Part shown: piece after piece, positions 26,868 through 38,407 of the stretch
How positions within the stretch are numbered: the first letter of the stretch is position 1
Layout of the letters: the number at the start of each line of letters is the position of its first letter
Source of the DNA: Flavobacteriales bacterium
Lineage (GTDB): Bacteria; Bacteroidota; Bacteroidia; Flavobacteriales_D; CALLUQ01
NCBI GenBank assembly: GCA_963669295.1
Contig: OY769938.1
Coordinates: 173,533-237,532, forward strand
DNA length: 64,000 bases
Direction of reading: 5' to 3'
The notes under the pieces: model-generated
Seen by the model: the letters and a program-made list of their open reading frames with translations, nothing else
Databases searched by the model: none
What the model was told of the DNA's origin: nothing
Made by a program: the position numbers and the translations under genes

Positions 26868-28586
26868 ATGAACATTCGACTTTCGCTTTCTCCATTAAAA
26901 GGATGGGGCTGCTCATTTTTACTGGCAGCACTGCTACTATCAAGCATTGGTTACGCCCAGCTTTTCCCCAACCCCATGCATGTACCCGATACCATTATGG
27001 GCACCACATTTAACCTGGTGGTAGATGAATCGAAAAAACTTTTCATTGCTGGCGATAGCAGCGATACCTATGGCATCAATGGCGATTATTTGGGACCTAC
27101 TTTAATTATGAATGAGGGTGATTTTGTGCAGATGAATGTGACCAACAACCTCGCCAATACCACCACCATGCACTGGCATGGTATGCATGTAGCGCCCGAA
27201 GATGATGGAGGGCCACATACGCCCATTGCACCTGGAGAAACGTGGTCGCCCGACTTTACCGTATTGGATGAGGCCACCACCTTTTGGTACCACCCACACT
27301 TGCATCATTATACGGCAGAACAAGTATACTTTGGCGCTGCGGGTATGATTTTGATCCGCGATAACAACCCCATTGCTAATCAGCTGCCCCACACCTACGG
27401 TGTAGACGAATTTCCATTGATTATACAAGACAAATCGTTCGATACCCTCAACCAATTTATTTACACCGAAATGGCCGACACCATGATGGTGAATGGCACA
27501 CTAGGTCCCTATTTGGAGGTACCCGGACAAATGGTGCGTTTCCACATCTTAAACGCTTCCAACCAACGGGTATACAACCTGGGGTTCCCCTTTCAATTCG
27601 ACATGTGGCAAATTGGTTCCGATGGTGGACTGCTGGAGCAACCATTGCCTACCAACCGGTTGTACATTGCCCCGGGCGAACGCGCTGAGGTGGTCATCGA
27701 CTTTAGCTCACAAATCGGCTGGAACGGGCCTATGGTATCGTTCAACTCAGAAATGGGTGATGGTGTATCAGGAGCCCCTAATGGTCCTGGTGGCGGCCCC
27801 AACAATCCATTGGATGGGGTAGATTTTCAGGTGTTGGAATTCAGGGTACAACCCCCTACCGCCAACCCCATTACCAGCATTCCCAATAACCTCAACACGT
27901 TAAGCCCACCACAAGAAATCAATACCGACCGTTACCGCACCAAAACCTTTACAGTTGACAGTACCGGATTTCCATTTTACATCAATGGCGAATTGATGGA
28001 CATGGCGGTATTTAACGATACGGTACTGCTCGACGACATTGAAGTGTGGACGCTCATCAACGAAACCGATATCGCGCACCCGTGGCACATTCACGACATT
28101 CAGTTTTTTGTACTCGACATCAATGGCAACCAACCTCCTCCCCACTTGCGTGGACGAAAGGATGTGGTACTGGTAGAACCGTTTGACACGATCAGGTACA
28201 TCACCCAGTTTACTGATTTCACCAACGATACGGTTCCCTACATGTTCCATTGCCACAACCTCTTTCATGAAGATGCAGGCATGATGGGACAGTTTATTGT
28301 AACCACTGGTGTGGGGGTGGAAGAATTGGAAGAAGGCACCGCCTTTTACGCCTACCCTAACCCAACGCTCAACCGCTTTAACATTGTGGCACACGAGGGC
28401 AACTTTTCCGACATCAATACCATTGAGGTGTGGGATACCCGTGGCCGACGGCTTGTTACCAGGGTTCCTGCGCCTGGGGTCAATCAACTCGAAATTGACC
28501 TTTCGCCCTACCCTACTGGTTTGTACTTGATACGGGTAAATTATGCCGATCAGTTTCAAACATTGAAGGTGATGAAGGCAAAGTAA
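26868..28586 (+). CDS. multicopper oxidase with T9SS sorting domain
   Basis: four Cu motifs HWHG, WYHPH, HPWHIH, HCHNLFHEDAGMM; C-terminal YPNPT...TGLYLIRV...KVMK. Confidence 0.93.
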   Translation: MNIRLSLSPLKGWGCSFLLAALLLSSIGYAQLFPNPMHVPDTIMGTTFNLVVDESKKLFIAGDSSDTYGINGDYLGPTLIMNEGDFVQMNVTNNLANTTTMHWHGMHVAPEDDGGPHTPIAPGETWSPDFTVLDEATTFWYHPHLHHYTAEQVYFGAAGMILIRDNNPIANQLPHTYGVDEFPLIIQDKSFDTLNQFIYTEMADTMMVNGTLGPYLEVPGQMVRFHILNASNQRVYNLGFPFQFDMWQIGSDGGLLEQPLPTNRLYIAPGERAEVVIDFSSQIGWNGPMVSFNSEMGDGVSGAPNGPGGGPNNPLDGVDFQVLEFRVQPPTANPITSIPNNLNTLSPPQEINTDRYRTKTFTVDSTGFPFYINGELMDMAVFNDTVLLDDIEVWTLINETDIAHPWHIHDIQFFVLDINGNQPPPHLRGRKDVVLVEPFDTIRYITQFTDFTNDTVPYMFHCHNLFHEDAGMMGQFIVTTGVGVEELEEGTAFYAYPNPTLNRFNIVAHEGNFSDINTIEVWDTRGRRLVTRVPAPGVNQLEIDLSPYPTGLYLIRVNYADQFQTLKVMKAK

Positions 28587-28738
28587 GGTGGTATAAAAAC
28601 GGTTAGCTCATCGGTTGTCAAAAAAGCAAAAAACGCTTTTCGAAACATCGCTCTGTATTCCCCTAAGCCAAGGCACAAGCGAGCTTTTGGCCAAAAATAA
28701 ATGCCGTATAAAACGGGAGAGCTCAGAGGTTCGGCTCC

Positions 28739-29096
28739 GAGCCAAAAAGCCTCGAATTAGAGCGTAAAGCGCTCGGAATCGAGCTAAAAACGCTTTATCG
28801 AGAGCGCATCACCCTCCTATTCGAGCGTTGAAGCATGGAGGGCATGGCAAAAAGGAACGGATGCCATGCTTTTACGCCCACTGTTGATGCAAGAAGAATC
28901 GTTGGCGAGCCTTAAAGCAACACGACCAAGCTTACTGGCAACGAGGGGCATGCTGCCTACCATTGCATTCATAGCTCGAAGCATTAAGCGCAAAGCTTCG
29001 AGCTTCGAACGAGAAGCAACAACGCTCGTGGGCGAGCAAAAAACGCTCAACGGTGATCCTGGAACGTTCGGCCTCGAACCTTTACAAATTTCATAA
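28739..29096 (+). repeat. degenerate 21-bp periodic (heptad-coding) tract, possible decayed ORF
   Basis: GAGC recurs at 28739, 28760, 28781, 28802, 28823; reads EPKSLEL-ERKALGI-ELKTLYR-ERITLLF-ER*; heptads resume in ORF 28866-29096. Confidence 0.55.
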
Positions 29097-29102
29097 GCTC
29101 AT

Positions 29103-29128
29103 GCAACCATTGCCCCCCTTTTTACGTC
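29103..29128 (+). promoter_or_regulatory. putative ECF-sigma promoter
   Basis: GCAACC-N16-CGTC upstream of the 29147 start. Confidence 0.4.
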
Positions 29129-29146
29129 ATTAAGAAAAGTAACGTT

Positions 29147-29557
29147 ATGATGAACGATGTACATATGGGGCAAGCCATTCGAGCAATCATGAACGAACAA
29201 GGGCTGGATAATGTTTGGTTAGCTAAACAACTGGGGCTGCATTACAGTACTGCACGTCGCATGCTCAACAATGCCTACCTAAAAATGGAGTGGGTAATTG
29301 CCATTTCCAAACTGCTGAATGTGAATTTGTTGAAACTGTATTTACAGGAAGACATTAAGGCCAAAGACAATTACGAGCAATTAAAATTGGAATTGAACGA
29401 ACGCTTCCAGGAGCGCATCAAAGTGTTGGATGCCGCTAATGCTACTAAAGCACACGCCCTTGAAGATGAAAACAAAAAGTTAGCAAGGGAATTAGAGCTC
29501 ACCCGGTTGCGGGTAACGCATTTGGAGGAAATGGTGGAAGTGTTGAAGAGCAGGTAG
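29147..29557 (+). CDS. XRE/Cro-like HTH protein with C-terminal coiled coil
   Basis: HMGQAIR..M.EQG...WLAKQLG.....RRML...ISKLLNVNLL followed by a heptad tail. Confidence 0.75.
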   Translation: MMNDVHMGQAIRAIMNEQGLDNVWLAKQLGLHYSTARRMLNNAYLKMEWVIAISKLLNVNLLKLYLQEDIKAKDNYEQLKLELNERFQERIKVLDAANATKAHALEDENKKLARELELTRLRVTHLEEMVEVLKSR

Positions 29558-29561
29558 GGAG

Positions 29562-29942
29562 TTACTGCACCATTAAGGCCAGCACCTCTTCTTTGCTGGT
29601 GAGTTGGTTGAACCAAAACAGGTTGGCCATTAATTTCCTGCTCAACAAAAACTCAAATTGCTTGTGTTGTTTCAATTGCTCTACGCGTATGGAAGTATAC
29701 ACCAACGCTTCATTGGTAGGGTCGTTGCGGTGCGATAACGCAAAGAAATAACGGTAAGGGGCTACTCCAGTATTTTCGAAAGGCCGGTGTTCCAGTATTC
29801 TTTTTAGTCGGCTATAATCGCCCGTTTCAATGCCAAAGCGCAATACCAACAACTCGCCTGCAATAGTGTGTTGGATGGTAGCTGCATAAATGTTGTTCTC
29901 TTTTGAAACTTCCAGCAATTCGATCATGTGATGATCTCCCAT
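29562..29942 (-). CDS. hypothetical protein
   Basis: 126-aa ORF convergent with the HTH gene; TACCTTTG promoter-like box just upstream. Confidence 0.65.
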   Translation of the reverse strand: MGDHHMIELLEVSKENNIYAATIQHTIAGELLVLRFGIETGDYSRLKRILEHRPFENTGVAPYRYFFALSHRNDPTNEALVYTSIRVEQLKQHKQFEFLLSRKLMANLFWFNQLTSKEEVLALMVQ

Positions 29943-30062
29943 AGCACAAAGGTATGTATAAGGCGTTAACTTTTTCTTGCTGTACTAAATTGCAATGATG
30001 AAGTTGATTGTTATTGATAACATTGAGCATAATAGAATTTCCAACCCTCCTCCAGCGCAGTA

Positions 30063-30117
30063 TTTTTTGAAGTCGCAAATTGCGACTTCAAGTGGTTGTA
30101 ACTGGATGATGGGCAAT
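30063..30117. repeat. 55-bp direct repeat copy 1 containing a perfect palindrome
   Basis: TTGAAGTCGCAA-A-TTGCGACTTCAA at 30067-30091 plus tail ending ATGATGGGCAAT, matching 31193-31247. Confidence 0.9.
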
Positions 30118-30359
30118 GCTCTGCGTAAAAATTGATGGAGGCTATTTGGTGATAAAATGCTGGAAAGGCATGAGCAATGGGAGTGACACACTGGCATCAC
30201 CTTGATGGCTTACGAAAGCTCCTTACTGCACCTGGTTCCTGTCTCGAATCAAGTTTGGGATAACACCAGAAGCTGGACTGGGAAAATCCGGTTTCCCGAA
30301 TGAACTGTCCCAACAAGTTATTATTTTAAACAACCAGGCATACAAATTCAATCCGTGGC

Positions 30360-31181
30360 TCATTCTTTTGCATACCGATTCAGCAGTTGGATGAACGATT
30401 GCAGCTGCTTTTCTTCCACTACTTCCCCCTGGAACAATAAGGTTTGCGCCTCCAGTACCAGTTTAAGTTTTCGTGTCATTACAAAAAATTCCAACTGCTC
30501 GGTTTCAGCATTTACTTTACGCGCCTCTGCCCTTTCGCGTGCTGCTTCTGCCAACAGCTTTGTAATGCGGGCAGCAATCTCTTCATTCTCCAAACCGGCT
30601 TTCTTTAGCCTACTCTTCAAATGATCGATCGACTCGCTGATAATGTCTTGCACTTCTTCCGCAATGGTTGTCCCTTTTTTAGCATCAATTACCGTGTCCA
30701 TTACCTGCTCCATGGCCTGTGCCAGCCTGGGGCCTATTTCCTGCATAAATTTGCTCAACTTAGTGGTTGATGCAATGGTTTTTACGGCAGCCTTTCTAGC
30801 CGCTATATTGCGCTGAATACCCATAATGGAACGCATTTCAATGAATGCCCTAATGACAAATACGCTGATGGCATCTGCTACGGAAGAAGAAGTAACATTG
30901 GCCACTTGCAATACCCCATGTTCGGTATAAGCGTAAGGTAATTTTCTTGTTCCTCCCCAACTTGAAGTCTCATTTTGCGACTTCAAATCGTTGAACTCTT
31001 CTACGGTAAGTTGAAACCTAAAATCTTCCGGAAATTTATTGGGGTTGCGTTTGGCTTGTTCATTAATGCGTTTGGTGGCGACTTCAAACAATGCTGCCAA
31101 ATCGGCATCAATGATCACATGCTGTCCACGAATGGTACGGATCGCTCCCCTGGTTCTACTGATAATTTCCTCCTCTTTCAT
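30360..31181 (-). CDS. ORF6N domain DNA-binding protein with C-terminal coiled coil
   Basis: IRTIRGQHVIIDADLAALFEV.TKRINEQAKRN..KFPEDFRFQL...LKSQNETSSWGG.RKLPYAYTEHGV. Confidence 0.92.
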   Translation of the reverse strand: MKEEEIISRTRGAIRTIRGQHVIIDADLAALFEVATKRINEQAKRNPNKFPEDFRFQLTVEEFNDLKSQNETSSWGGTRKLPYAYTEHGVLQVANVTSSSVADAISVFVIRAFIEMRSIMGIQRNIAARKAAVKTIASTTKLSKFMQEIGPRLAQAMEQVMDTVIDAKKGTTIAEEVQDIISESIDHLKSRLKKAGLENEEIAARITKLLAEAARERAEARKVNAETEQLEFFVMTRKLKLVLEAQTLLFQGEVVEEKQLQSFIQLLNRYAKE

Positions 31182-31192
31182 CGGCACGGTGT

Positions 31193-31247
31193 TTTTTTGA
31201 AGTCGCAATTTGCGACTTCAAGTAGTTATACATGAATGATGGGCAAT
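31193..31247. repeat. 55-bp direct repeat copy 2 containing a perfect palindrome
   Basis: TTGAAGTCGCAA-T-TTGCGACTTCAA at 31197-31221, 15 bp upstream of the ORF6N ATG. Confidence 0.9.
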
Positions 31248-31427
31248 TCCCACCTGTGTAAAGTAGCGCAGCAGGTGTAACTATTCAAAAATTGTTGATG
31301 AAACTGTGGAATAAGGGGATGGATGATGGTGGGGATAGCATGGCATCAAGATGAATTCAAACATCCTCCAACGCATCGTTATCCTGTTCGCCTCAGGCGG
31401 ATCAGGATCTGGGTAACGGGAGGAAAA

Positions 31428-32942
31428 TTAACAAGACAACCCAAGTGCTTTAAACTCAAGGTAAGTTTGCTTCAACTCCTTATAGCTCTTCACCATCGAA
31501 ACGAGCAGTTTGGCCCACCCAACAAAGCCTGTAGCAAGGTGCTTAAAGATGTTGAGCAACCAACCAATCATGTGGCACCCCAATTTAAATGCCCTGGTGT
31601 GTAGTGCCAATGCATCGAAAGATTGTTGCTGTTCCACAGGAGTTATTTGCTTCGAAAAATAGGCTGTTGTATCCATATCGGCCGAAAACAAGAAAGCACT
31701 TTTGGGAGTGGCCATGCCCCCTTTAATGTAAACCCCTATTGCACGCACTACGTTGGTAATGCCACATTTCACAACCTTGTACACCTTTGAAGCATACCTA
31801 AAAAACGCTTTAAACACATTTTCCTCCAGGAAGGAAATTACCTTTTTTCCAATTTTTTTCATCCATCGCCAAAGTCTTTTCAACCCATCCCAAAGTCGTA
31901 TCCCTCTTTCTTTTATATACGACCATGCTTTTTCCACCTTGCTGGTAGATACCATTTCTTTGGCGATGGCCTCACTGGCCTCGTCTTCATCAAATGCGTT
32001 GTCGTTTTCTTCGTGGGCAATGCTAATGCTTTGAAAAAATGCGGGCGTAATTTTTCGAGCCAGGCGATTGGCTGTGGTATTATCGTGCCCTTGAAACTGC
32101 TGGTAGTACTCCGACATCTTTTTATAGACCGGACTATCGGTACTAATGGCAAAATCATTTTTCCCATCGATGGGTACGTCATAGCCCAATAACCATAGCT
32201 CTATTTTGGCACAATTCACCAAAAAGCGTTCGGCCAGTTGTTGTTGTTTTGCTTTGCCTTTGCTCGCAAACCGGAGTAAAAATCGCTTTTTATCTGCCGA
32301 TGCCCTGCGTGCAATGGCATGAGTAAGCAAGTCCTGGTTGAATAAAAGGCTAAGGGTTTCGGCATTGAGGTCGGCAGTATAACCAGTGTCTTTCACTAAA
32401 AAGATAAAGAGCACCTTGCCAAATTTTTCCAGGTCTTTTGCTTCGAGTAAATCGAAGTTTTTTTTAGGCTTATACCGGTGCAATCCTAAGCTCCATAAAC
32501 GCAACTGCACCGCTCGCTGCACCGCCTTGTTGGCTTCCGGCCTGATGGTGCCATTCACAAACCATTGCTCCATGGTGAGCTCCGATTCAAAGCTCACCAG
32601 CTCATCGAGCGCATACCAGGTTTTGTTGCCCACCCAATTGTCTTGTTTGAGGTTGGCTTCTCGCTGAAATTGTGCCACTGCATCTTTAATGGCATCCAGC
32701 TGCTGGTGGATTTTTTTAGGAGGAATTTTGCGAGGCAGGTACCCCAATAGCCAAAGTCGGGTGGCAATGGTTTGTATCCTCACCTGCTGACTGGTAACAT
32801 CGTAGGTTTCCGCTTCATTTTCAGGAGTAACAGAAATGATGCCTTTTCGGCCAGCTTCATCCAGGATATGTTCGAACTGCCCTAACTGGTTTATGGGAGT
32901 ACCCGATAAATCAGCCAACGCATACTCGGGTAAATTCGACAT
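31428..32942 (-). CDS. peptidoglycan-binding (PG_binding_1-like) domain protein
   Basis: AVAQFQREANLKQDNWVGNKTWYAL; three RLWLLGY-like repeats; amphipathic C-terminus; no signal peptide. Confidence 0.75.
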   Translation of the reverse strand: MSNLPEYALADLSGTPINQLGQFEHILDEAGRKGIISVTPENEAETYDVTSQQVRIQTIATRLWLLGYLPRKIPPKKIHQQLDAIKDAVAQFQREANLKQDNWVGNKTWYALDELVSFESELTMEQWFVNGTIRPEANKAVQRAVQLRLWSLGLHRYKPKKNFDLLEAKDLEKFGKVLFIFLVKDTGYTADLNAETLSLLFNQDLLTHAIARRASADKKRFLLRFASKGKAKQQQLAERFLVNCAKIELWLLGYDVPIDGKNDFAISTDSPVYKKMSEYYQQFQGHDNTTANRLARKITPAFFQSISIAHEENDNAFDEDEASEAIAKEMVSTSKVEKAWSYIKERGIRLWDGLKRLWRWMKKIGKKVISFLEENVFKAFFRYASKVYKVVKCGITNVVRAIGVYIKGGMATPKSAFLFSADMDTTAYFSKQITPVEQQQSFDALALHTRAFKLGCHMIGWLLNIFKHLATGFVGWAKLLVSMVKSYKELKQTYLEFKALGLSC

Positions 32943-32946
32943 TGAA

Positions 32947-33282
32947 TTACTTCAACAATCCCTTGAATAAATCGAGTAAGCCTAAGCGCGTTTCGATGCC
33001 TGCTTTGATGGCATTTTTATGCGTTTCCAATGCCAACTCAGGAACATCGTCTAAATTTTGCTTCACAAAATTGTAAGAATCGCCATCGAATTGAGCCAGT
33101 GTTTCGGCCACCAGGGTAATTTTTCCCGATTCTTCCGAAGCTTTCACCAACTCTCTCAAGTCTTTGAAACTTTCTGTACCATCCAATTCCAGGTTCACTT
33201 CTCCGGTGTAGGTTTGTACGTGCAATGAGGTTAAATCTTGTACTGCATTGTTTAAGTTTTCTAATGCATCTTTTAGTGCCAT
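32947..33282 (-). CDS. small hypothetical protein, operonic with the PG-binding protein
   Basis: 111-aa ORF ending 4 bp before the next start. Confidence 0.75.
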   Translation of the reverse strand: MALKDALENLNNAVQDLTSLHVQTYTGEVNLELDGTESFKDLRELVKASEESGKITLVAETLAQFDGDSYNFVKQNLDDVPELALETHKNAIKAGIETRLGLLDLFKGLLK

Positions 33283-33384
33283 AATGCTCGTTTTTTGTGG
33301 TTTAAAAACTTCAATATAGTTAAAAATTACGGTGGCGTAAACCCGGTTTTGGAAGTGGGTGGGAATGAGGGGGTAAGGTTAAAA

Positions 33385-34350
33385 CTACTGTTTCACAATG
33401 CGCTTTACAAGCGTACCATCTCCAAAATGTACTTTAACAAAGTACAATCCATTTTCCTGATCTTTAATATCTATATCCGTTCGGTAAGAGCGTGAGCGCT
33501 GTGAAAAAACCTTTTTGCCAAGCACATCAAACACCTCAATACCAGTTGGCTCAGAATTCTTTAGTTCTTCAACATGTAAAGCGAATACTCCACTGGTGGG
33601 GTTTGGATAGATGCTGATAAGATCGCTATTTAGCGATTGTTCTGAAATTCCCACCAGGGAATCACAACGAACCACACGAACATCATCAATGTAATAGTAG
33701 GCACCATCAATGCCTCCAGTATTATCGATGGTATCAACAATTTGAACATCTTGATGCAACTTAAAGTTACCAATTGTCAAAAACTTTTCTCCACCAACAG
33801 CTGTATGTTGTCCAGATACCAGGTTCCATGAAACTATATCATTCAGAATATTTCCCGAAGGATTTTCTATTTGAGGTATAACAGTGAAAGGGGCATTAGT
33901 TGCACCCACTAAACTATCATTAGACAAATGAGCTCCAATAGAACTGATAGCATATCTAGCCTCTTCTGCTAATGAGACATAAAATTCAACACAATACTGC
34001 TCACCGGCTACCAATGAATCCGTTAACGCTATGGAAACATATTCGTAGTTATAATTATTGTTATTGTTATAAAGGTATGGGATAATGCCCGCATAGGCCT
34101 CACCTGTTCTCGCATTTTGATTGCCTGCAACATTGGTAGGAACATTGGACGATGAGACATTACCATTACAGGAATTAAAATAATCTGGTGAGGTGAGGCA
34201 CGGGTTAAACCAATTCATGCAGGACGCTACCTCGTCAACGCCATTCGGACAAGCAAGTGTATCCTCAAAACTCCAATTTGGCACAAGGTTTTGAGAGTGC
34301 CCTAATAAGGAAGAAAGCACAAGAGTTAATATTAAAATTGTATGTTTCAC
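33385..34350 (-). CDS. T9SS type A sorting domain protein
   Basis: signal peptide; QNLVPNWSFE...SPDYF...LTIGNF...AYYYIDDV domain; C-terminal IYPNPTSG...GLYFVKV...KRIVKQ. Confidence 0.88.
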   Translation of the reverse strand: MKHTILILTLVLSSLLGHSQNLVPNWSFEDTLACPNGVDEVASCMNWFNPCLTSPDYFNSCNGNVSSSNVPTNVAGNQNARTGEAYAGIIPYLYNNNNNYNYEYVSIALTDSLVAGEQYCVEFYVSLAEEARYAISSIGAHLSNDSLVGATNAPFTVIPQIENPSGNILNDIVSWNLVSGQHTAVGGEKFLTIGNFKLHQDVQIVDTIDNTGGIDGAYYYIDDVRVVRCDSLVGISEQSLNSDLISIYPNPTSGVFALHVEELKNSEPTGIEVFDVLGKKVFSQRSRSYRTDIDIKDQENGLYFVKVHFGDGTLVKRIVKQ

Positions 34351-34408: not shown

Positions 34409-37400
34409 CTATTTTTGAATTACAAACTTACCGGATTGCATTTCAGTGTCATTTATCATGACTTTATAAAGATACAACCCATTGCTTAATTCTTGTTCAT
34501 TGAGCTTTAATACTTGTGTTTCAGAAGCAAGTGCATAACGACTTAACTGCCTGCCTGCGAGGTCAAGAATTATAAGCTCTCCTGATTGTCCATCACCAAG
34601 TTCATATTTTAGACGCATTTGCCCATTGTTTGGGTTGGGATAGAGAGAGTATGCCGTTGATGAAGAAACTTCCTGTTCAACTACAAATTCTCGCAGTTGG
34701 TCGGTTGCACAGGAGTTAAACCAACCAAGTAAAGCTCGTGCTGAGTATACAGCCTGCCCACCTATCAATCCTTCCTGGCATGCAATAAATTCCAAATCAG
34801 CTTGTTGCTGCGCGGAAAATTCATAGATTCCCACTGCATATGTATTTAGATGGATGTTATAAACCGTTTTCATATTAATCTCATGCAGGTGGTTACCATT
34901 GATGCTATTAGTAACCAGGTTAGCATTGGAAATATCTCCAACCTTCACCAACTCTTGAACCTGGCAAATAGCACCAACATCAGCTTGCTCGCAAGTAGAA
35001 TAGAAATTTTGGTAATCAATGTCATCTTGCGTTCCCTGATTTAACCAGGCAGGGTTGTCTACAAATGCTCGAAATGCCGTAATTTGGTCATAAAAGGTAA
35101 ACTCAGCATTATTCGCATTAAAGCTCCTTTCGTTGCGAACTATCGGACCAAAAAGCTGCTCGCGCAATTGTGGGCCTGGGCCATTAGGTCCAGGAGTTAC
35201 TGCGCAAGGACTTGGCCCATTGGTTAAAATAGGGTTAAAATTACTCAGCACTAACGTTGGAGAGGGGGCAGGGTTAAAGTTTGTACCACTATTATGATAC
35301 CAATCTACTGGATCCATACCAAGATCCCCATCTGAATTGTAAATGTCAATATTGTTAACCCAACGATTGTCAGTGGGAGCATTGCTTGAACCTTGATGTC
35401 CAACATCAGCAAAATCAAGAAAAAGGCCATGAAAGTTTTGCAACATACTGTTACATTCAATCGTACTATTGTTGTTAGCATGTTTAAACTCCAACCCCTT
35501 ACCAACACGCCTCGTTTCATTTTTAAACACTGTGGTTAAAGCACTGTTTTCAACATGAATGCCCGTAAGAAATTCATTGTTATCTGGAACATCTCCACCT
35601 CGCTGCACACGATTGGCCTCAACAGTTGAATTGGGGCACATTTCAAGCCATATGCCGTTGCGCTGAATCATGGCAGTGCCCAGATTTGCGTTAGTAAAGT
35701 TAAACTGCACACGGTTGTTAAACACCTCTGCACCATCCATGTTTTGCAAAAAGATCCCTGTTTCAGGTTGACGAATAAGGTTATTTTCAACTTTAGTAAT
35801 ATTGCCCAAACCCGGGAGTACATTACTCACGGCAATTCCCGTTTCAATAAATTGAGTGCCGCCTGCATTCGGAAAGTTGATGGCATTGTTTTTAATCAAA
35901 ATAACACTTTGAGAATTCTCAAAACTGTTAATCCCAATTACTCCGTTTGCGTGTTCTATTTCATTTCGTTCGATGTTAATACCCCCACTCTTATTGAATG
36001 CTACAGCAATACTCACCAATTCCATATTTGTAAATGAATTTCGTCGAACATCTACATCTACATTTTGCTGTGCACGAACCCCCCAATAACAATTATCAAA
36101 ACTATTACTGGCTTGCTGGTTACCACCTCCAACCTGTAGGCCATAGTGCGTATTCTGATCGCCTGTTAACCGAATAGCAGTTCCAACACCTGGGTCGGCA
36201 TTTGGGTTAGGGTTGGTGATGTTTAAAAAGCTATTTCCCTGTATTACTAGATTAGATCGAAAACCTTGAATACCATAATCAAGGTTATCAAAGGTATTGT
36301 CTCGATTAATATTCAATAAGTCCACATCGTTAACTTCCATACCTTCAAACCCACGCATTCCGCTATAAGGGGGGAGTAAAGTGCCTGATGTTCGAAATAT
36401 ACTGGCATCCACAACACCCAAATGATTGCCCGCAAATGATTCTACTACTATTCCCTTATAGTTATTTTGAAAGAGGCATTGTTCCATCTTGTAACTCCCT
36501 CCATTTACACTCACGACTGCATTTTCTGCATTGAAAAAGGCATTCGAATTGGCACCAAAGGAAGCAGTCATATCGCTGATATAGATGCCATCCCACATTT
36601 TACCACAACCCGCTTGAATGGAACCATCATTCAAATCAAAAGTGATTCCAGGTTCAATGGTAATCTTTGCATTAGGTGCCATATAAATAAAGCAACCATT
36701 ACATGTGAAATTTTGATCGATGATCAGTTCACCATTGATAATGATTGGGTTTGGATTCGTTAAAACTGTCGGCTGCCCTAAACTTGAAAGAGTTGTTGGA
36801 ACACAAGGTGGAGTGGAAAACGTTATAGGTGCTCCTCCTAAAAGTTCATTTTGAATATCGCAACACCCCTCCACCGGATATTGAACGGTATTGGCACAAC
36901 CATCAGCATTGGTTACGGTTAATTCAATAGTTGCGTCAGCACCGCCTAATGCGGTCCAATCCACAGTTATGCTGTTTGTTCCATCGCCTGTGAAGGCCGT
37001 AGTTGGTATGATTTCCCAATCGTAAGTAGCATAAATATCATCAACAAAATAAGTGTTAGCGCCTGAACAACAAGAGCAAAACTCTCCGGCTACAACAGGA
37101 GGAGTTGGTTGATCAAAAATAGTAATCGTTTGCGTCAATGCTGTAAGCGGGTCGTTGTTAACCGTTAATGTTACATTATACGTTCCAGCTGCATTATAGA
37201 TATGTGTTGGGTTTTGAAGGTTACTCCCATTACCATCACCAAAATCCCAGTCCCATACTGATGGAGAACAACTTGAATTATCAGTAAACTGAATAGGTTC
37301 TCCAACGCAACCATCCTGAACAGTAAAATCGACAACCGTACCTACAATGAATTGTTGAGTGATACTATTTGAACCACATTCATTGGTAGCTATTACCGTT

Positions 37401-38407
37401 ACATCATAAGTTCCCGGAGGAAACCCCAGTCCAAAATTGTTCTGGAAAAATGGGCCAGGAGTACCACCATTAATGCTAACTTCCAGTGTTGTATTACCCG
37501 ATGTTGTTCCGGTGTAGATGATCTCTGTACTGCTAGAACACATTGGGTTTTCCATAAAACCGAATTGAGGTTGAGGCAAGTCGACAACGGTGATTTCTAC
37601 CCATGAATCAGGAACATAAGTAAACGGTGGTTGTGTATAACGCCTGTACAATATAATATAGTATGTCCCACTGTTTGGGTAACTAACCTGAAATCCTATT
37701 GATGTGTTATTGTATTGAAAAAAAGAAGGAGCAGTTGAACTTCCTGTTACATCCCAAAAGAAATCCCAATTACCATTGGTAAGAAAACTATTATTTGGGG
37801 CAGCATGAGCAACATTAATAGTTTCATCAGTACAAGTCGTCAACCAATCGACACATGTATTTTGCCTTCCCCCAAATGCACCAACACAACATAAACCATT
37901 TGTGCATATTCCTGGCGATAGTGCCAATTGAGGTGTAATTTCAAAAACACAAAGATCAAAAAAAGCTTCTTCTACTATACACTTTTGATCGCCACACTCG
38001 GTTGGAACTCCCCTCGTAAATTCAATAAGATAATTGTCTCCAACAGTGAGGTCGTATACATCAAGGCCGGTCGAAACCAATGAGCTAAATGCCAATAGAT
38101 CAATTTCCTTAACAACCTGCATGTACTGACAATACGATCCAACACGATATACAGTTATTGTATGTAAATGAGCGTTTGGAGCCGATGAGCTCTCTGCGGT
38201 ACCAATTAGCACTCCTGATTCTGTAGCCATGAATTCTACCCATAGTGATGTTTGATTTTCTGCAAAACTCATTGTTTGCATGTTGCATGATGCAGCTGTT
38301 GGAAAGGATATTGGGTTTCCGCAACTTGTTCCTGTTTGTGCTAAGATAGAATTACTCAGCATCAGGAAAACAGCTATACAATAGACCATTTGTTTAATTG
38401 TTTTCAT
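34409..38407 (-). CDS. large T9SS-secreted protein with PKD domain and parallel beta-helix repeats
   Basis: signal peptide; PKD WDWDFGDG...NPTHIY..AGTYNVTLTV; Asn-rich beta-helix; C-terminal LYPNPNNG...GLYLYKV...GKFVIQK. Confidence 0.88.
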   Translation of the reverse strand: MKTIKQMVYCIAVFLMLSNSILAQTGTSCGNPISFPTAASCNMQTMSFAENQTSLWVEFMATESGVLIGTAESSSAPNAHLHTITVYRVGSYCQYMQVVKEIDLLAFSSLVSTGLDVYDLTVGDNYLIEFTRGVPTECGDQKCIVEEAFFDLCVFEITPQLALSPGICTNGLCCVGAFGGRQNTCVDWLTTCTDETINVAHAAPNNSFLTNGNWDFFWDVTGSSTAPSFFQYNNTSIGFQVSYPNSGTYYIILYRRYTQPPFTYVPDSWVEITVVDLPQPQFGFMENPMCSSSTEIIYTGTTSGNTTLEVSINGGTPGPFFQNNFGLGFPPGTYDVTVIATNECGSNSITQQFIVGTVVDFTVQDGCVGEPIQFTDNSSCSPSVWDWDFGDGNGSNLQNPTHIYNAAGTYNVTLTVNNDPLTALTQTITIFDQPTPPVVAGEFCSCCSGANTYFVDDIYATYDWEIIPTTAFTGDGTNSITVDWTALGGADATIELTVTNADGCANTVQYPVEGCCDIQNELLGGAPITFSTPPCVPTTLSSLGQPTVLTNPNPIIINGELIIDQNFTCNGCFIYMAPNAKITIEPGITFDLNDGSIQAGCGKMWDGIYISDMTASFGANSNAFFNAENAVVSVNGGSYKMEQCLFQNNYKGIVVESFAGNHLGVVDASIFRTSGTLLPPYSGMRGFEGMEVNDVDLLNINRDNTFDNLDYGIQGFRSNLVIQGNSFLNITNPNPNADPGVGTAIRLTGDQNTHYGLQVGGGNQQASNSFDNCYWGVRAQQNVDVDVRRNSFTNMELVSIAVAFNKSGGINIERNEIEHANGVIGINSFENSQSVILIKNNAINFPNAGGTQFIETGIAVSNVLPGLGNITKVENNLIRQPETGIFLQNMDGAEVFNNRVQFNFTNANLGTAMIQRNGIWLEMCPNSTVEANRVQRGGDVPDNNEFLTGIHVENSALTTVFKNETRRVGKGLEFKHANNNSTIECNSMLQNFHGLFLDFADVGHQGSSNAPTDNRWVNNIDIYNSDGDLGMDPVDWYHNSGTNFNPAPSPTLVLSNFNPILTNGPSPCAVTPGPNGPGPQLREQLFGPIVRNERSFNANNAEFTFYDQITAFRAFVDNPAWLNQGTQDDIDYQNFYSTCEQADVGAICQVQELVKVGDISNANLVTNSINGNHLHEINMKTVYNIHLNTYAVGIYEFSAQQQADLEFIACQEGLIGGQAVYSARALLGWFNSCATDQLREFVVEQEVSSSTAYSLYPNPNNGQMRLKYELGDGQSGELIILDLAGRQLSRYALASETQVLKLNEQELSNGLYLYKVMINDTEMQSGKFVIQK

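Follow-up and report, generated by a model that had tools for sequence, protein, structure and literature searches.

The DNA encoding the ORF6N signature motif is a family-wide palindrome and a probable binding site of the ORF6N protein

Introduction

Binding sites located inside the gene of their own binder are known from parS in spo0J/parB, from the lambda origin of replication (lambda ori) in gene O and from pac in small-terminase genes. Here we analyze a gene of the ORF6N family (PF10543) in a Flavobacteriales bacterium, for which the same arrangement appears to be a property of the whole family. The gene lies in a 64,000-nucleotide (nt) stretch, hereafter called the window, that corresponds to positions 173,533-237,532 of the forward strand of contig OY769938.1 (assembly GCA_963669295.1), and the focus is on window positions 30,063-31,247. 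Two perfect palindromes bracket the gene and a third, imperfect copy inside it encodes the signature motif of the ORF6N domain. A comparison of ORF6N genes from bacteria and phages suggests that ORF6N is probably a sequence-specific binder of double-stranded DNA that reads this intragenic palindrome, and that the two outer copies serve as additional operators.

Among the closest described systems are also the CasPR anti-CRISPRs. These proteins are reported to recognize a sequence motif within a coding region and have been proposed to act as a roadblock for RNA polymerase; they contain CapR and AP2 domains and target the genes of another system (bioRxiv 10.64898/2026.02.23.707548). Within the publications covered by our literature search, ORF6N is mentioned only in passing and never in a title or abstract, and no binding site or palindrome is described for it. 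The same literature search gave nothing relevant on an intragenic operator, or on a palindrome associated with Bro-N or KilA-N. The label "anti-repressor" that is attached to ORF6N is an annotation passed on by likeness.

Results

The motif-coding DNA is palindromic across the family

The sample of ORF6N loci comprised 30 taken from genomes of the same order, 80 from genome records of many phyla and 80 from viral contigs. For the many-phyla and viral sets, the search used peptide patterns from outside the motif, and therefore the palindrome did not bias the selection of these sets. The profile hidden Markov model (HMM) gave 223 hits, of which 219 sites were read and 4 were skipped, resulting in 156 distinct 29-mers. 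All 156 were scored at a centre placed on the first base of the codon that follows "SQ".

The DNA that encodes the motif (LxSQxxTSS) is a palindrome of approximately 29 bp, with a mean of 11.8 symmetric pairs out of 14, in many phyla and in phage contigs; the question raised in the earlier note on this locus, whether the SQxxTS-coding DNA is palindromic across ORF6N genes, is thereby answered in the affirmative. All 14 pairs were symmetric in 28 of the 29-mers, 13 in 46, 12 in 32, 11 in 28, 9-10 in 13 and 8 or fewer in 9. Thus, 134 of the 156 had at least 11 symmetric pairs, and several of the low scorers later proved to be shifted palindromes. Other centres in the same genes gave a mean of 3.6 pairs and a maximum of 5.5. 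When the codons were redrawn among synonymous codons, the mean was 5.25 pairs as compared to the 11.8 observed, and amino-acid constraint alone was rejected as the cause of the palindrome.

Changes in one arm are matched in the other. Of 148 cases, the pair at distance 4 from the centre is G:C in 66, A:T in 43 and C:G in 31. Compensated changes were also observed at distances 5, 7, 8, 13 and 14, and the pairing reaches distance 15. The encoded peptide tracks the DNA, as in LRYQIGTSS, LKCQFGISS, LRLQFATSR and MSSQFVMTS. Next to the centre, the glutamine of the motif is encoded by CAA at 135 and by CAG at 5 of the 156 sites, as compared to 710 CAA and 657 CAG codons elsewhere in the same genes. 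This bias persists where the facing base is A too, and the CAA base would fall in the loop of a hairpin.

The same DNA is translated in two reading frames

Three genes that seemingly had no palindrome were found to have it 2 nt off, and these were used to seed a metagenome scan. This brought the total to 265 distinct genes. The centre is located on codon position 1 in 199 of them and on codon position 2 in 65, the remaining one being a mis-centred call. The palindrome is at the same place in the position-2 subfamily, where it encodes the peptide EVV[AT][NK]CDHL, for example EVVANCDHL. The protein flanks on both sides of the site are homologous between the two subfamilies, and therefore a pair of insertions or deletions has shifted the frame across the site with the site itself unmoved. 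This comparison indicates that the conserved entity is a nucleic-acid element rather than a peptide.

The core of the site covaries with two residues of a predicted helix

We assigned each site to a core class, defined by the bases at positions 5 and 4 from the centre, and calculated how much information on the core class is carried by each column of the domain alignment. Residue numbers are those of the domain model, in which residues 24 and 27 correspond to R38 and E41 of the window protein. For frame 0 (168 genes, class entropy 1.76 bits), the values were 1.61 bits for residue 27, 1.39 bits for residue 24 and 0.47 bits for residue 28; the site-encoded residues 57 and 54 gave 1.45 and 0.72 bits, and the remaining columns 0.43 bits or less. 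For frame 1 (61 genes, entropy 1.10 bits), residue 24 gave 0.99, residue 27 0.94 and residue 28 0.71 bits, the site-encoded residues 54 and 57 gave 0.91 and 0.21 bits, and the remaining columns 0.44 bits or less. The core classes and the associated residues are as follows.

CG core (GTCGCAA): R24/E27 in 80 of 82 genes in frame 0 and in 38 of 39 in frame 1
CA core (GTCACAA): Q27 in 54 of 54 genes in frame 0, with residue 24 mostly V or A; 20 of 20 in frame 1
GC core ((T/A)GCCAA): R27 in 17 of 17 genes in frame 0, with residue 24 variable (x); none seen in frame 1
TC core (GTTCCAA): K27 in 12 of 12 genes in frame 0, with N24 in 11; none seen in frame 1

The rule was built on the first sets, where it fits 79 of 81, 32 of 35 and 51 of 51 genes (5 genes with poor palindromes were left unscored). 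On the metagenome set, which was fetched later, it fits 77 of 78. There are six misfits in total, and in two of these (L025 and L298) the protein agrees instead with an external palindrome close by. As a rougher control for relatedness, we compared 91 disjoint pairs of genes that have different core classes and are 60-95% identical elsewhere; in 89 of these pairs, residue 27 is not the same.

The covarying residues (R38 and E41 in the window protein) are encoded 28-31 codons upstream of the palindrome. A contact between the helix and the site-encoded peptide was rejected as the source of the code, which is the same in both frames, because the variable residue that is encoded differs between the frames (57 in one and 54 in the other). 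A linkage block also fails as an explanation, because the columns between residues 28 and 50 are poorly informative about the core class. The pairings would be chemically plausible, with Arg or Lys facing G, Gln facing A, and Arg/Glu facing the CG step.

In an AlphaFold model of the domain (mean pLDDT 80), helices 11-18 and 22-31 are separated by 3 residues, and residues 24 and 27 are located in helix 22-31, the second helix of a predicted helix-turn-helix. The site-encoded residues 50-60 span the last part of helix 46-55 and a loop modelled with low confidence, which takes insertions in relatives. A Foldseek search gave no match at an E-value of 0.001 or better, and a sequence search for relatives of solved structure gave none. 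The fold matches obtained were with winged-helix, MerR-like and Par domains at Z 4-7; the best of these weak matches include the centromere-binding domain of pSK1 Par (Z 6.0), N-terminal domains of ParA, and RacA. The homodimer prediction for the 273-amino-acid (aa) protein scored 0.20 against a mark of 0.32 and was used as evidence neither way.

Symmetry that extends over 14-15 positions with compensated changes would also be seen if the palindrome were an RNA or single-stranded DNA stem-loop that acts independently of the ORF6N protein, in mRNA stability, translation, processing or priming. The upstream copies would then be further leader stem-loops, and the external copies are indeed positioned where a leader could be. 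Each copy in the window folds as RNA at approximately -15.5 kcal/mol (z -5.3 to -7.4), and A.C mismatches are more frequent than G.T mismatches (69 and 27, respectively), as for wobble on the antisense strand. However, a stem-loop gives no account of core bases that track residues 24 and 27 from 28-31 codons away and in two frames, nor of the A adjoining the centre, which is retained even opposite A. A wobble signal for the sense strand was not seen, Rfam gave 0 matches at E-values up to 1 (positions 28500-33500, both strands), and the hairpin is not followed by a terminator T-run on either strand. We regard the stem-loop as an improbable explanation of the site; a stem-loop effect may ride along with the DNA site.

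Compensated changes are also a product of template switching. A palindrome without function could be perpetuated by template-switch mutation as a quasi-palindrome in a tolerant protein loop, and the encoded segment does consist of a helix end and a low-confidence loop that accepts insertions. We give this explanation the least credence of all. It leaves unaccounted for the correspondence between the core and residues 24 and 27, the preference for CAA where the base is unpaired, the non-coding copies of the same sequence before start codons, and the retention of the palindrome across phyla and through the frame change.

Three copies of the palindrome at the window locus

The ORF6N protein of the window matches the Pfam ORF6N family at an E-value of 9.8e-30 (103.1 bits against a cut-off of 27.8). 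The match covers residues 15-97 of the protein and positions 3-86 of the 86 profile positions, and the protein is also matched by PHROG "anti-repressor" families. When aligned with 42 other domain matches, the protein displays the motif L-x-S-Q-x-x-T-S-S followed by GG..R..P.AFTE.G (LKSQNETSSWGGTRKLPYAYTEHG). The features of the locus are as follows.

31193-31247, no strand: copy B of a 55-nt direct repeat, holding O1 and approximately 26 nt upstream of O1 on the gene strand; 89% identical to 30063-30117
31197-31221, no strand: O1, perfect 25-bp palindrome with centre 31209, the proposed promoter-proximal operator; its GTCGCAA core fits the R38/E41 class
30360-31181, minus strand: ORF6N gene (ATG at 31181, stop at 30360), 273 aa, with the domain at approximately residues 14-96 and then a long C-terminal part; from PF10543, PHROG and the structure model
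31078-31087, minus strand: extra exact half-site TTGAAGTCGC in codons F32-A35, probably idiosyncratic
31047-31076, minus strand: codons T36-R45 of the predicted recognition helix (model residues 22-31), with R38 at 31068-31070 and E41 at 31059-31061; from the model and the covariation
30960-30988, minus strand: O2, the intragenic family palindrome, with its centre at 30974, the first base of codon N70; encodes L66-S74; from the family comparison
30067-30091, no strand: O3, second perfect 25-bp palindrome with centre 30079, between the ORF6N stop and the 126-aa gene; from the pattern count
30063-30117, no strand: copy A of the 55-nt direct repeat, holding O3; from the repeat alignment
29562-29942, minus strand: gene for a 126-aa protein without known family (family searches), downstream of O3 and a candidate second operator target

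The earlier note had described the palindrome TTGAAGTCGCAA-N-TTGCGACTTCAA (12-bp arms, 25 bp in total) as perfect at 30067-30091 and 31197-31221, with a near-copy at 30962-30986 and with the perfect copies inside 55-bp repeats 1130 bp apart, and all of this was recovered. The near-copy has 2 mismatches and encodes L66-S74 as LKSQNETSS. In the window, the palindrome has 3 matches at up to 3 mismatches, as compared to 0.00 expected from 100 shuffles. The upstream copy ends 15 nt 5' of the ORF6N ATG, and the other perfect copy is located 268 nt past the ORF6N stop and 124 nt ahead of the ATG of the 126-aa gene at 29942, in agreement with the placement given in the note. The plus-strand translations of the outer copies, LKSQIATSS and LKSQFATSS, which the note took to be variants of the signature motif, both occur as such in other ORF6N proteins. 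In the whole genome (5,895,558 bases in one contig), the 25-mer is found at up to 3 mismatches only at the three places of this locus, with 0 for a control pattern. By this genome-wide count, which the note had called for, the 25-mer is confined to the locus and is therefore not a dispersed repeat. The only other genome of the family, which is 91% complete, has no copy of the palindrome.

The 55-nt repeats are followed, further upstream on the gene strand, by a weaker similarity over approximately 200 nt, with a mean column identity of 65% in a gapped alignment. Together, these observations imply that an upstream segment was duplicated and that the palindrome-proximal part has been retained. 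The core of the sites, GTCGCAA, is the one that corresponds to R38/E41 of the window protein, so that protein and sites match in class. Of the 14 positions of O2, 11 pair; its promoter-distal half is degenerate (GAG for GCG) and its other half is good.

The half-site at 31078-31087 is the sixth exact occurrence of TTGAAGTCGC, as compared to 0.07 expected. Extra internal half-sites were rejected as a trait of the family, in that an extra copy of a gene's own 9-mer is present in 16 of 209 genes, with a mean of 5.0 and a maximum of 9 for the controls. There are 23 such occurrences, all but three of them within upstream palindromes.

A different palindrome in the second ORF6N gene of the genome

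The genome holds two PF10543 genes, the one in the window and one more. At the codon position of the window's O2, the second gene carries another perfect palindrome, GGTATCACA-AAA-TGTGATACC, which differs from that of the window, and a non-coding copy of it with 1 mismatch is located 15 nt before the ATG, which is the same spacing as in the window. The two copies (G000:C1:5873142-5873162 and 5873381-5873401, outside the window) are the only ones in the genome. The second protein has a helix of the T/Q type and its site has a CA core. Since the palindrome is a different one and is again duplicated before the ATG, the non-coding copy follows the coding copy. A dispersed repeat of the repetitive extragenic palindrome (REP) kind or similar to a miniature inverted-repeat transposable element (MITE) was rejected, the copies being found only at their own loci for both ORF6N genes. 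The other long palindromes of the genome that share the core are terminator-like GC stems with T runs.

External copies at other ORF6N loci

For 232 genes the full upstream region was available. In 30 of these, a family-type palindrome is located 200-400 nt upstream of the internal centre, that is, at or just 5' of the start codon. The earlier note had asked whether nearby non-coding copies co-vary with the internal one; this holds for 12 of the 30, in which the upstream palindrome is within 3 mismatches of the gene's own site. The upstream core fits residue 27 of the gene in 16 of the 30. Matching external sites 0-30 nt before the start codon were identified in Bacteroidota, Planctomycetota, Lentisphaerota and phage contigs, and near-copies (up to 3 mismatches) just before the start codon are found, for example, at loci L053, L159, L114, L043, L289, L294 and L302.

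Upstream palindromes of a misfit class were observed at L018, L039, L070, L110, L138, L016, L109, L267 and L275. Such palindromes may have been left behind by allele replacement, or they may serve as sites for incoming elements. When 36 upstream palindromes were examined, only one (L090, centres 1404 and 1662) was preceded by a real fragment of an ORF6N N-terminus; three more were preceded by marginal fragment matches (E-values 0.007-0.017). At L090, a truncated ORF6N of the second frame ends just past its palindrome, approximately 20 nt before a complete ORF6N of the first frame.

These loci bear on the suggestion that the palindromes are recombination sites, which would make the gene an excisable, invertible or replaceable cassette or let the outer copies act as donors for conversion of the motif. 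A perfect copy, embedded in a direct 55-nt repeat, is present on either side of the window gene, 14 of the 30 upstream palindromes misfit the class of the protein, as would result from an exchange of alleles behind a site that stayed in place, and closely similar genes differ in specificity class; the truncated ORF6N directly before a complete one at L090 and the tandem palindromes inside some coding sequences would also fit. However, the contigs of two sequencing runs that cover the locus contain no joint, deletion or inversion, contigs being known to drop rare variants, and none of the 15 open reading frames (ORFs) scanned between 19.4 and 42.5 kb matches a recombinase, integrase or transposase family in Pfam (three of them match no Pfam family at all). 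The GC content around the locus is unremarkable. A real ORF6N fragment precedes just the one upstream palindrome, paralogues in one array could not recombine because their palindrome sequences differ, and the residue-base code would be left unexplained. The proposal of the earlier note in which the flanking copies are donors for recombination or conversion, or mobilize the cassette, thus finds no support here, and we consider recombination sites to be very improbable.

A further alternative agrees with the binding of the palindrome by the protein and differs in its purpose. The palindrome could serve chiefly as a cis-acting address. Through it, the protein and its variable C-terminal part would be tethered to the element to which the gene belongs, for partition or anchoring, replication, packaging or silencing rather than for autoregulation, much as with the known sites inside the gene of their binder. 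The 202 of 232 genes that have no family-type palindrome in the upstream region scanned are in line with such a role, as is the intragenic position of the site, which is poor for a classical operator. So are the weak fold matches to pSK1 Par, the N-terminal domains of ParA and RacA, the usual architecture of a DNA-binding domain, a helical middle and a short conserved C-terminal tail, and the variable C-terminal parts of the PHROG "anti-repressors". On the other hand, the extra copies cluster just before start codons, which is the usual place of an operator, and a partition site does not explain several ORF6N genes per chromosome or tandem arrays. The window locus displays no sign of a mobile element, and common arrangements reach fold scores of this size. 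A cis-acting address in place of autoregulation therefore appears unlikely to us, and of the alternatives it is the one to be taken most seriously.

Further observations on ORF6N genes and the neighborhood of the locus

Two family-type palindromes per coding sequence were found at L103 (centres 1659 and 1698, 0-based on the gene strand), L056 (1665 and 1749) and L083 (1662 and 1722). These double palindromes are 39-84 nt apart and are translated as a duplicated motif in the loop. Tandem arrays of two or three ORF6N genes approximately 500 nt apart, usually of different classes, are present at L020, L034, L026, L093 and L066, and L105 and L026 each have two genes with an identical palindrome. 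At loci L006-L195, most ORF6N proteins end, beyond a helical middle, in a conserved P(R/K)xxIG(F/Y) tail. Of 152 complete genes, 58 matched a pattern for the IGF type of tail; IGY forms, which this pattern misses, are frequent too. The window protein is without this tail and is approximately 80 residues longer.

No conserved partner gene was identified among 924 clustered neighboring ORFs, the biggest cluster being antisense frames over ORF6N. At 36 loci, long antisense open frames over the ORF6N domain cluster in a family-like manner, which is most likely an artefact of conserved DNA.

The 126-aa protein had no family match, and an atlas search gave only eukaryotic clusters of the helical-repeat type, which were of no use. 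A 136-aa protein is encoded at 29147-29557 on the plus strand, convergent with the 126-aa gene. It has a weak match to helix-turn-helix proteins of the Cro/C1 type (HTH_3 20.8 bits, below the cut-off of 23; PHROG repressor families at an E-value of 1e-6). A 30-nt segment between O3 and the ORF6N stop (30124-30153) has an exact match in another contig of approximately 73 kb, in two sequencing runs. The products of the genes at 26868-28586, 33385-34350 and 34409-38407 end in a type IX secretion sorting domain, detected by Pfam for two of them; the product of 26868-28586 was judged, by eye only, to be multicopper oxidase-like with a sorting-domain ending. These neighbors point to a Bacteroidota chromosome context.

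Discussion

We propose that the predicted helix-turn-helix of ORF6N probably binds the palindrome of approximately 29 bp that is embedded at the coding position of its own signature motif. The second helix would most likely read each half-site, and its residues 24 and 27 would set the base pairs 4-5 from the centre. At the window locus, O2 would represent the ancestral position of the site, and O1 and O3 would be duplicated promoter-proximal operators. A dimer on O1, and more weakly on O2, would repress transcription of the ORF6N gene, and a dimer on O3 would control the 126-aa gene. Reader and site would travel as a unit of less than 1 kb that needs no particular promoter context. The suggestion in the earlier note that the protein binds a site that is also its own coding sequence thus gains support from the comparison, in the form of the family-wide palindrome, the frame change, the helix-residue covariation and the upstream copies that match the internal one in 12 of 30 genes. 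Its stronger version, that specificity is literally coupled to the target, does not, since R38 and E41 lie 28-31 codons upstream and outside the palindrome-encoded motif. Reader and site are linked within 100 bp, and what is coupled is therefore their physical linkage. The comparative side of the evidence is unusually clean; binding, the dimeric form, repression and the direction of control are what we infer from it.

Several observations weigh against this proposal. The main caveat on the covariation between residues and core is relatedness, and the tree test is underpowered: on a poorly resolved tree of the 60 remaining columns, 3 independent contrasts fall on supported branches, all concordant (sign test p 0.25), as compared to 41 contrasts when all branches are counted. 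The fold matches are weak and spread over winged-helix, MerR-like and Par domains. The symmetry extends over 14-15 bp per half-site with the variable positions included, which is longer than the usual contact of a helix-turn-helix and is what the base pairing of a hairpin predicts, and the excess of A.C over G.T at non-paired positions fits wobble on the antisense strand. A family-type palindrome upstream of the gene is present in only 30 of 232 cases, and 14 of these 30 have a core that misfits the gene's own residue 27. Cross-regulation by paralogues was rejected as an explanation of the misfit palindromes, since both of those tested (L018 and L039) occur only once in their genomes and hence have no cognate paralogue. 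A scan for sigma-70 promoters and terminators, in which the promoter type of this phylum is not included, gave nothing near O1 or O3, and because no promoter was identified there the term operator refers to position only. Furthermore, O3 is placed 124 nt before its gene, the spacing of 235 bp between O1 and O2 (239 bp in the second gene) is no whole number of helical turns, and the intragenic site of the window is half degenerate.

A further-reaching reading, which in our judgement is as apt to be wrong as right, is that the ORF6N signature motif is a translated operator. What is conserved would then be the DNA site of approximately 29 bp read by residues 24 and 27, and the peptide would be largely a by-product, so that the same DNA reads LxSQxATSS in one subfamily and EVVANCDHL in the other. 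Each gene would be self-addressed, with reader and site close together, and would keep its feedback or tethering wherever it landed. Specificity would have switched repeatedly by coordinated changes (R/E with CG, V/A and Q with CA, N/K with TC, x/R with GC), giving rise to orthogonal paralogues, and the family would constitute a natural library of thousands of matched protein-site pairs that can be read from sequence.

If ORF6N does bind its palindrome, sequence-specific DNA binding at a defined site would be the first function for a widespread and unstudied domain of phages and bacteria. The most conserved peptide motif of the domain would have been shaped by a DNA site, even across a frame change, which would be a clean case of dual coding and a caution for motif-based annotation. 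A recognition code would be readable from genomes without experiments and could supply non-cross-reacting repressor-operator pairs for engineering. A horizontally moving gene would keep its own control regardless of promoter context. For the window, all three palindromes would be explained, and the 126-aa gene is predicted to be co-controlled.

The proposed system resembles autoregulated helix-turn-helix repressors, such as phage Cro/CI, MerR-like and antitoxin proteins, in its small protein and two-fold symmetric site, in having a copy of the site at its own start codon (O1), in a site that is limited to its own locus, in paralogues with different sites and in the covariation of residues and bases in the second helix. 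It differs from these in that the primary site of ORF6N is located approximately 200 nt inside the coding sequence and not at the promoter, and in that this site is approximately 29 bp long, overlaps the signature motif and persists in two frames. As compared to the CasPRs, ORF6N would target its own gene rather than those of another system, and a roadblock is only putative for ORF6N.

As for parS, lambda ori and pac, the cis site and the gene of its reader form one physical unit that is hard to separate by recombination. Those are, however, single systems or loosely placed sites, whereas the ORF6N site is found at a fixed codon position throughout the family, in several phyla and in phages, and it co-varies with the specificity residues and shapes a conserved peptide motif. 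Thus, what is new with respect to the known kinds is the combination of a codon position that is fixed family-wide, translation of the site in two frames, a residue-base code that can be read and an overlap with the signature motif.

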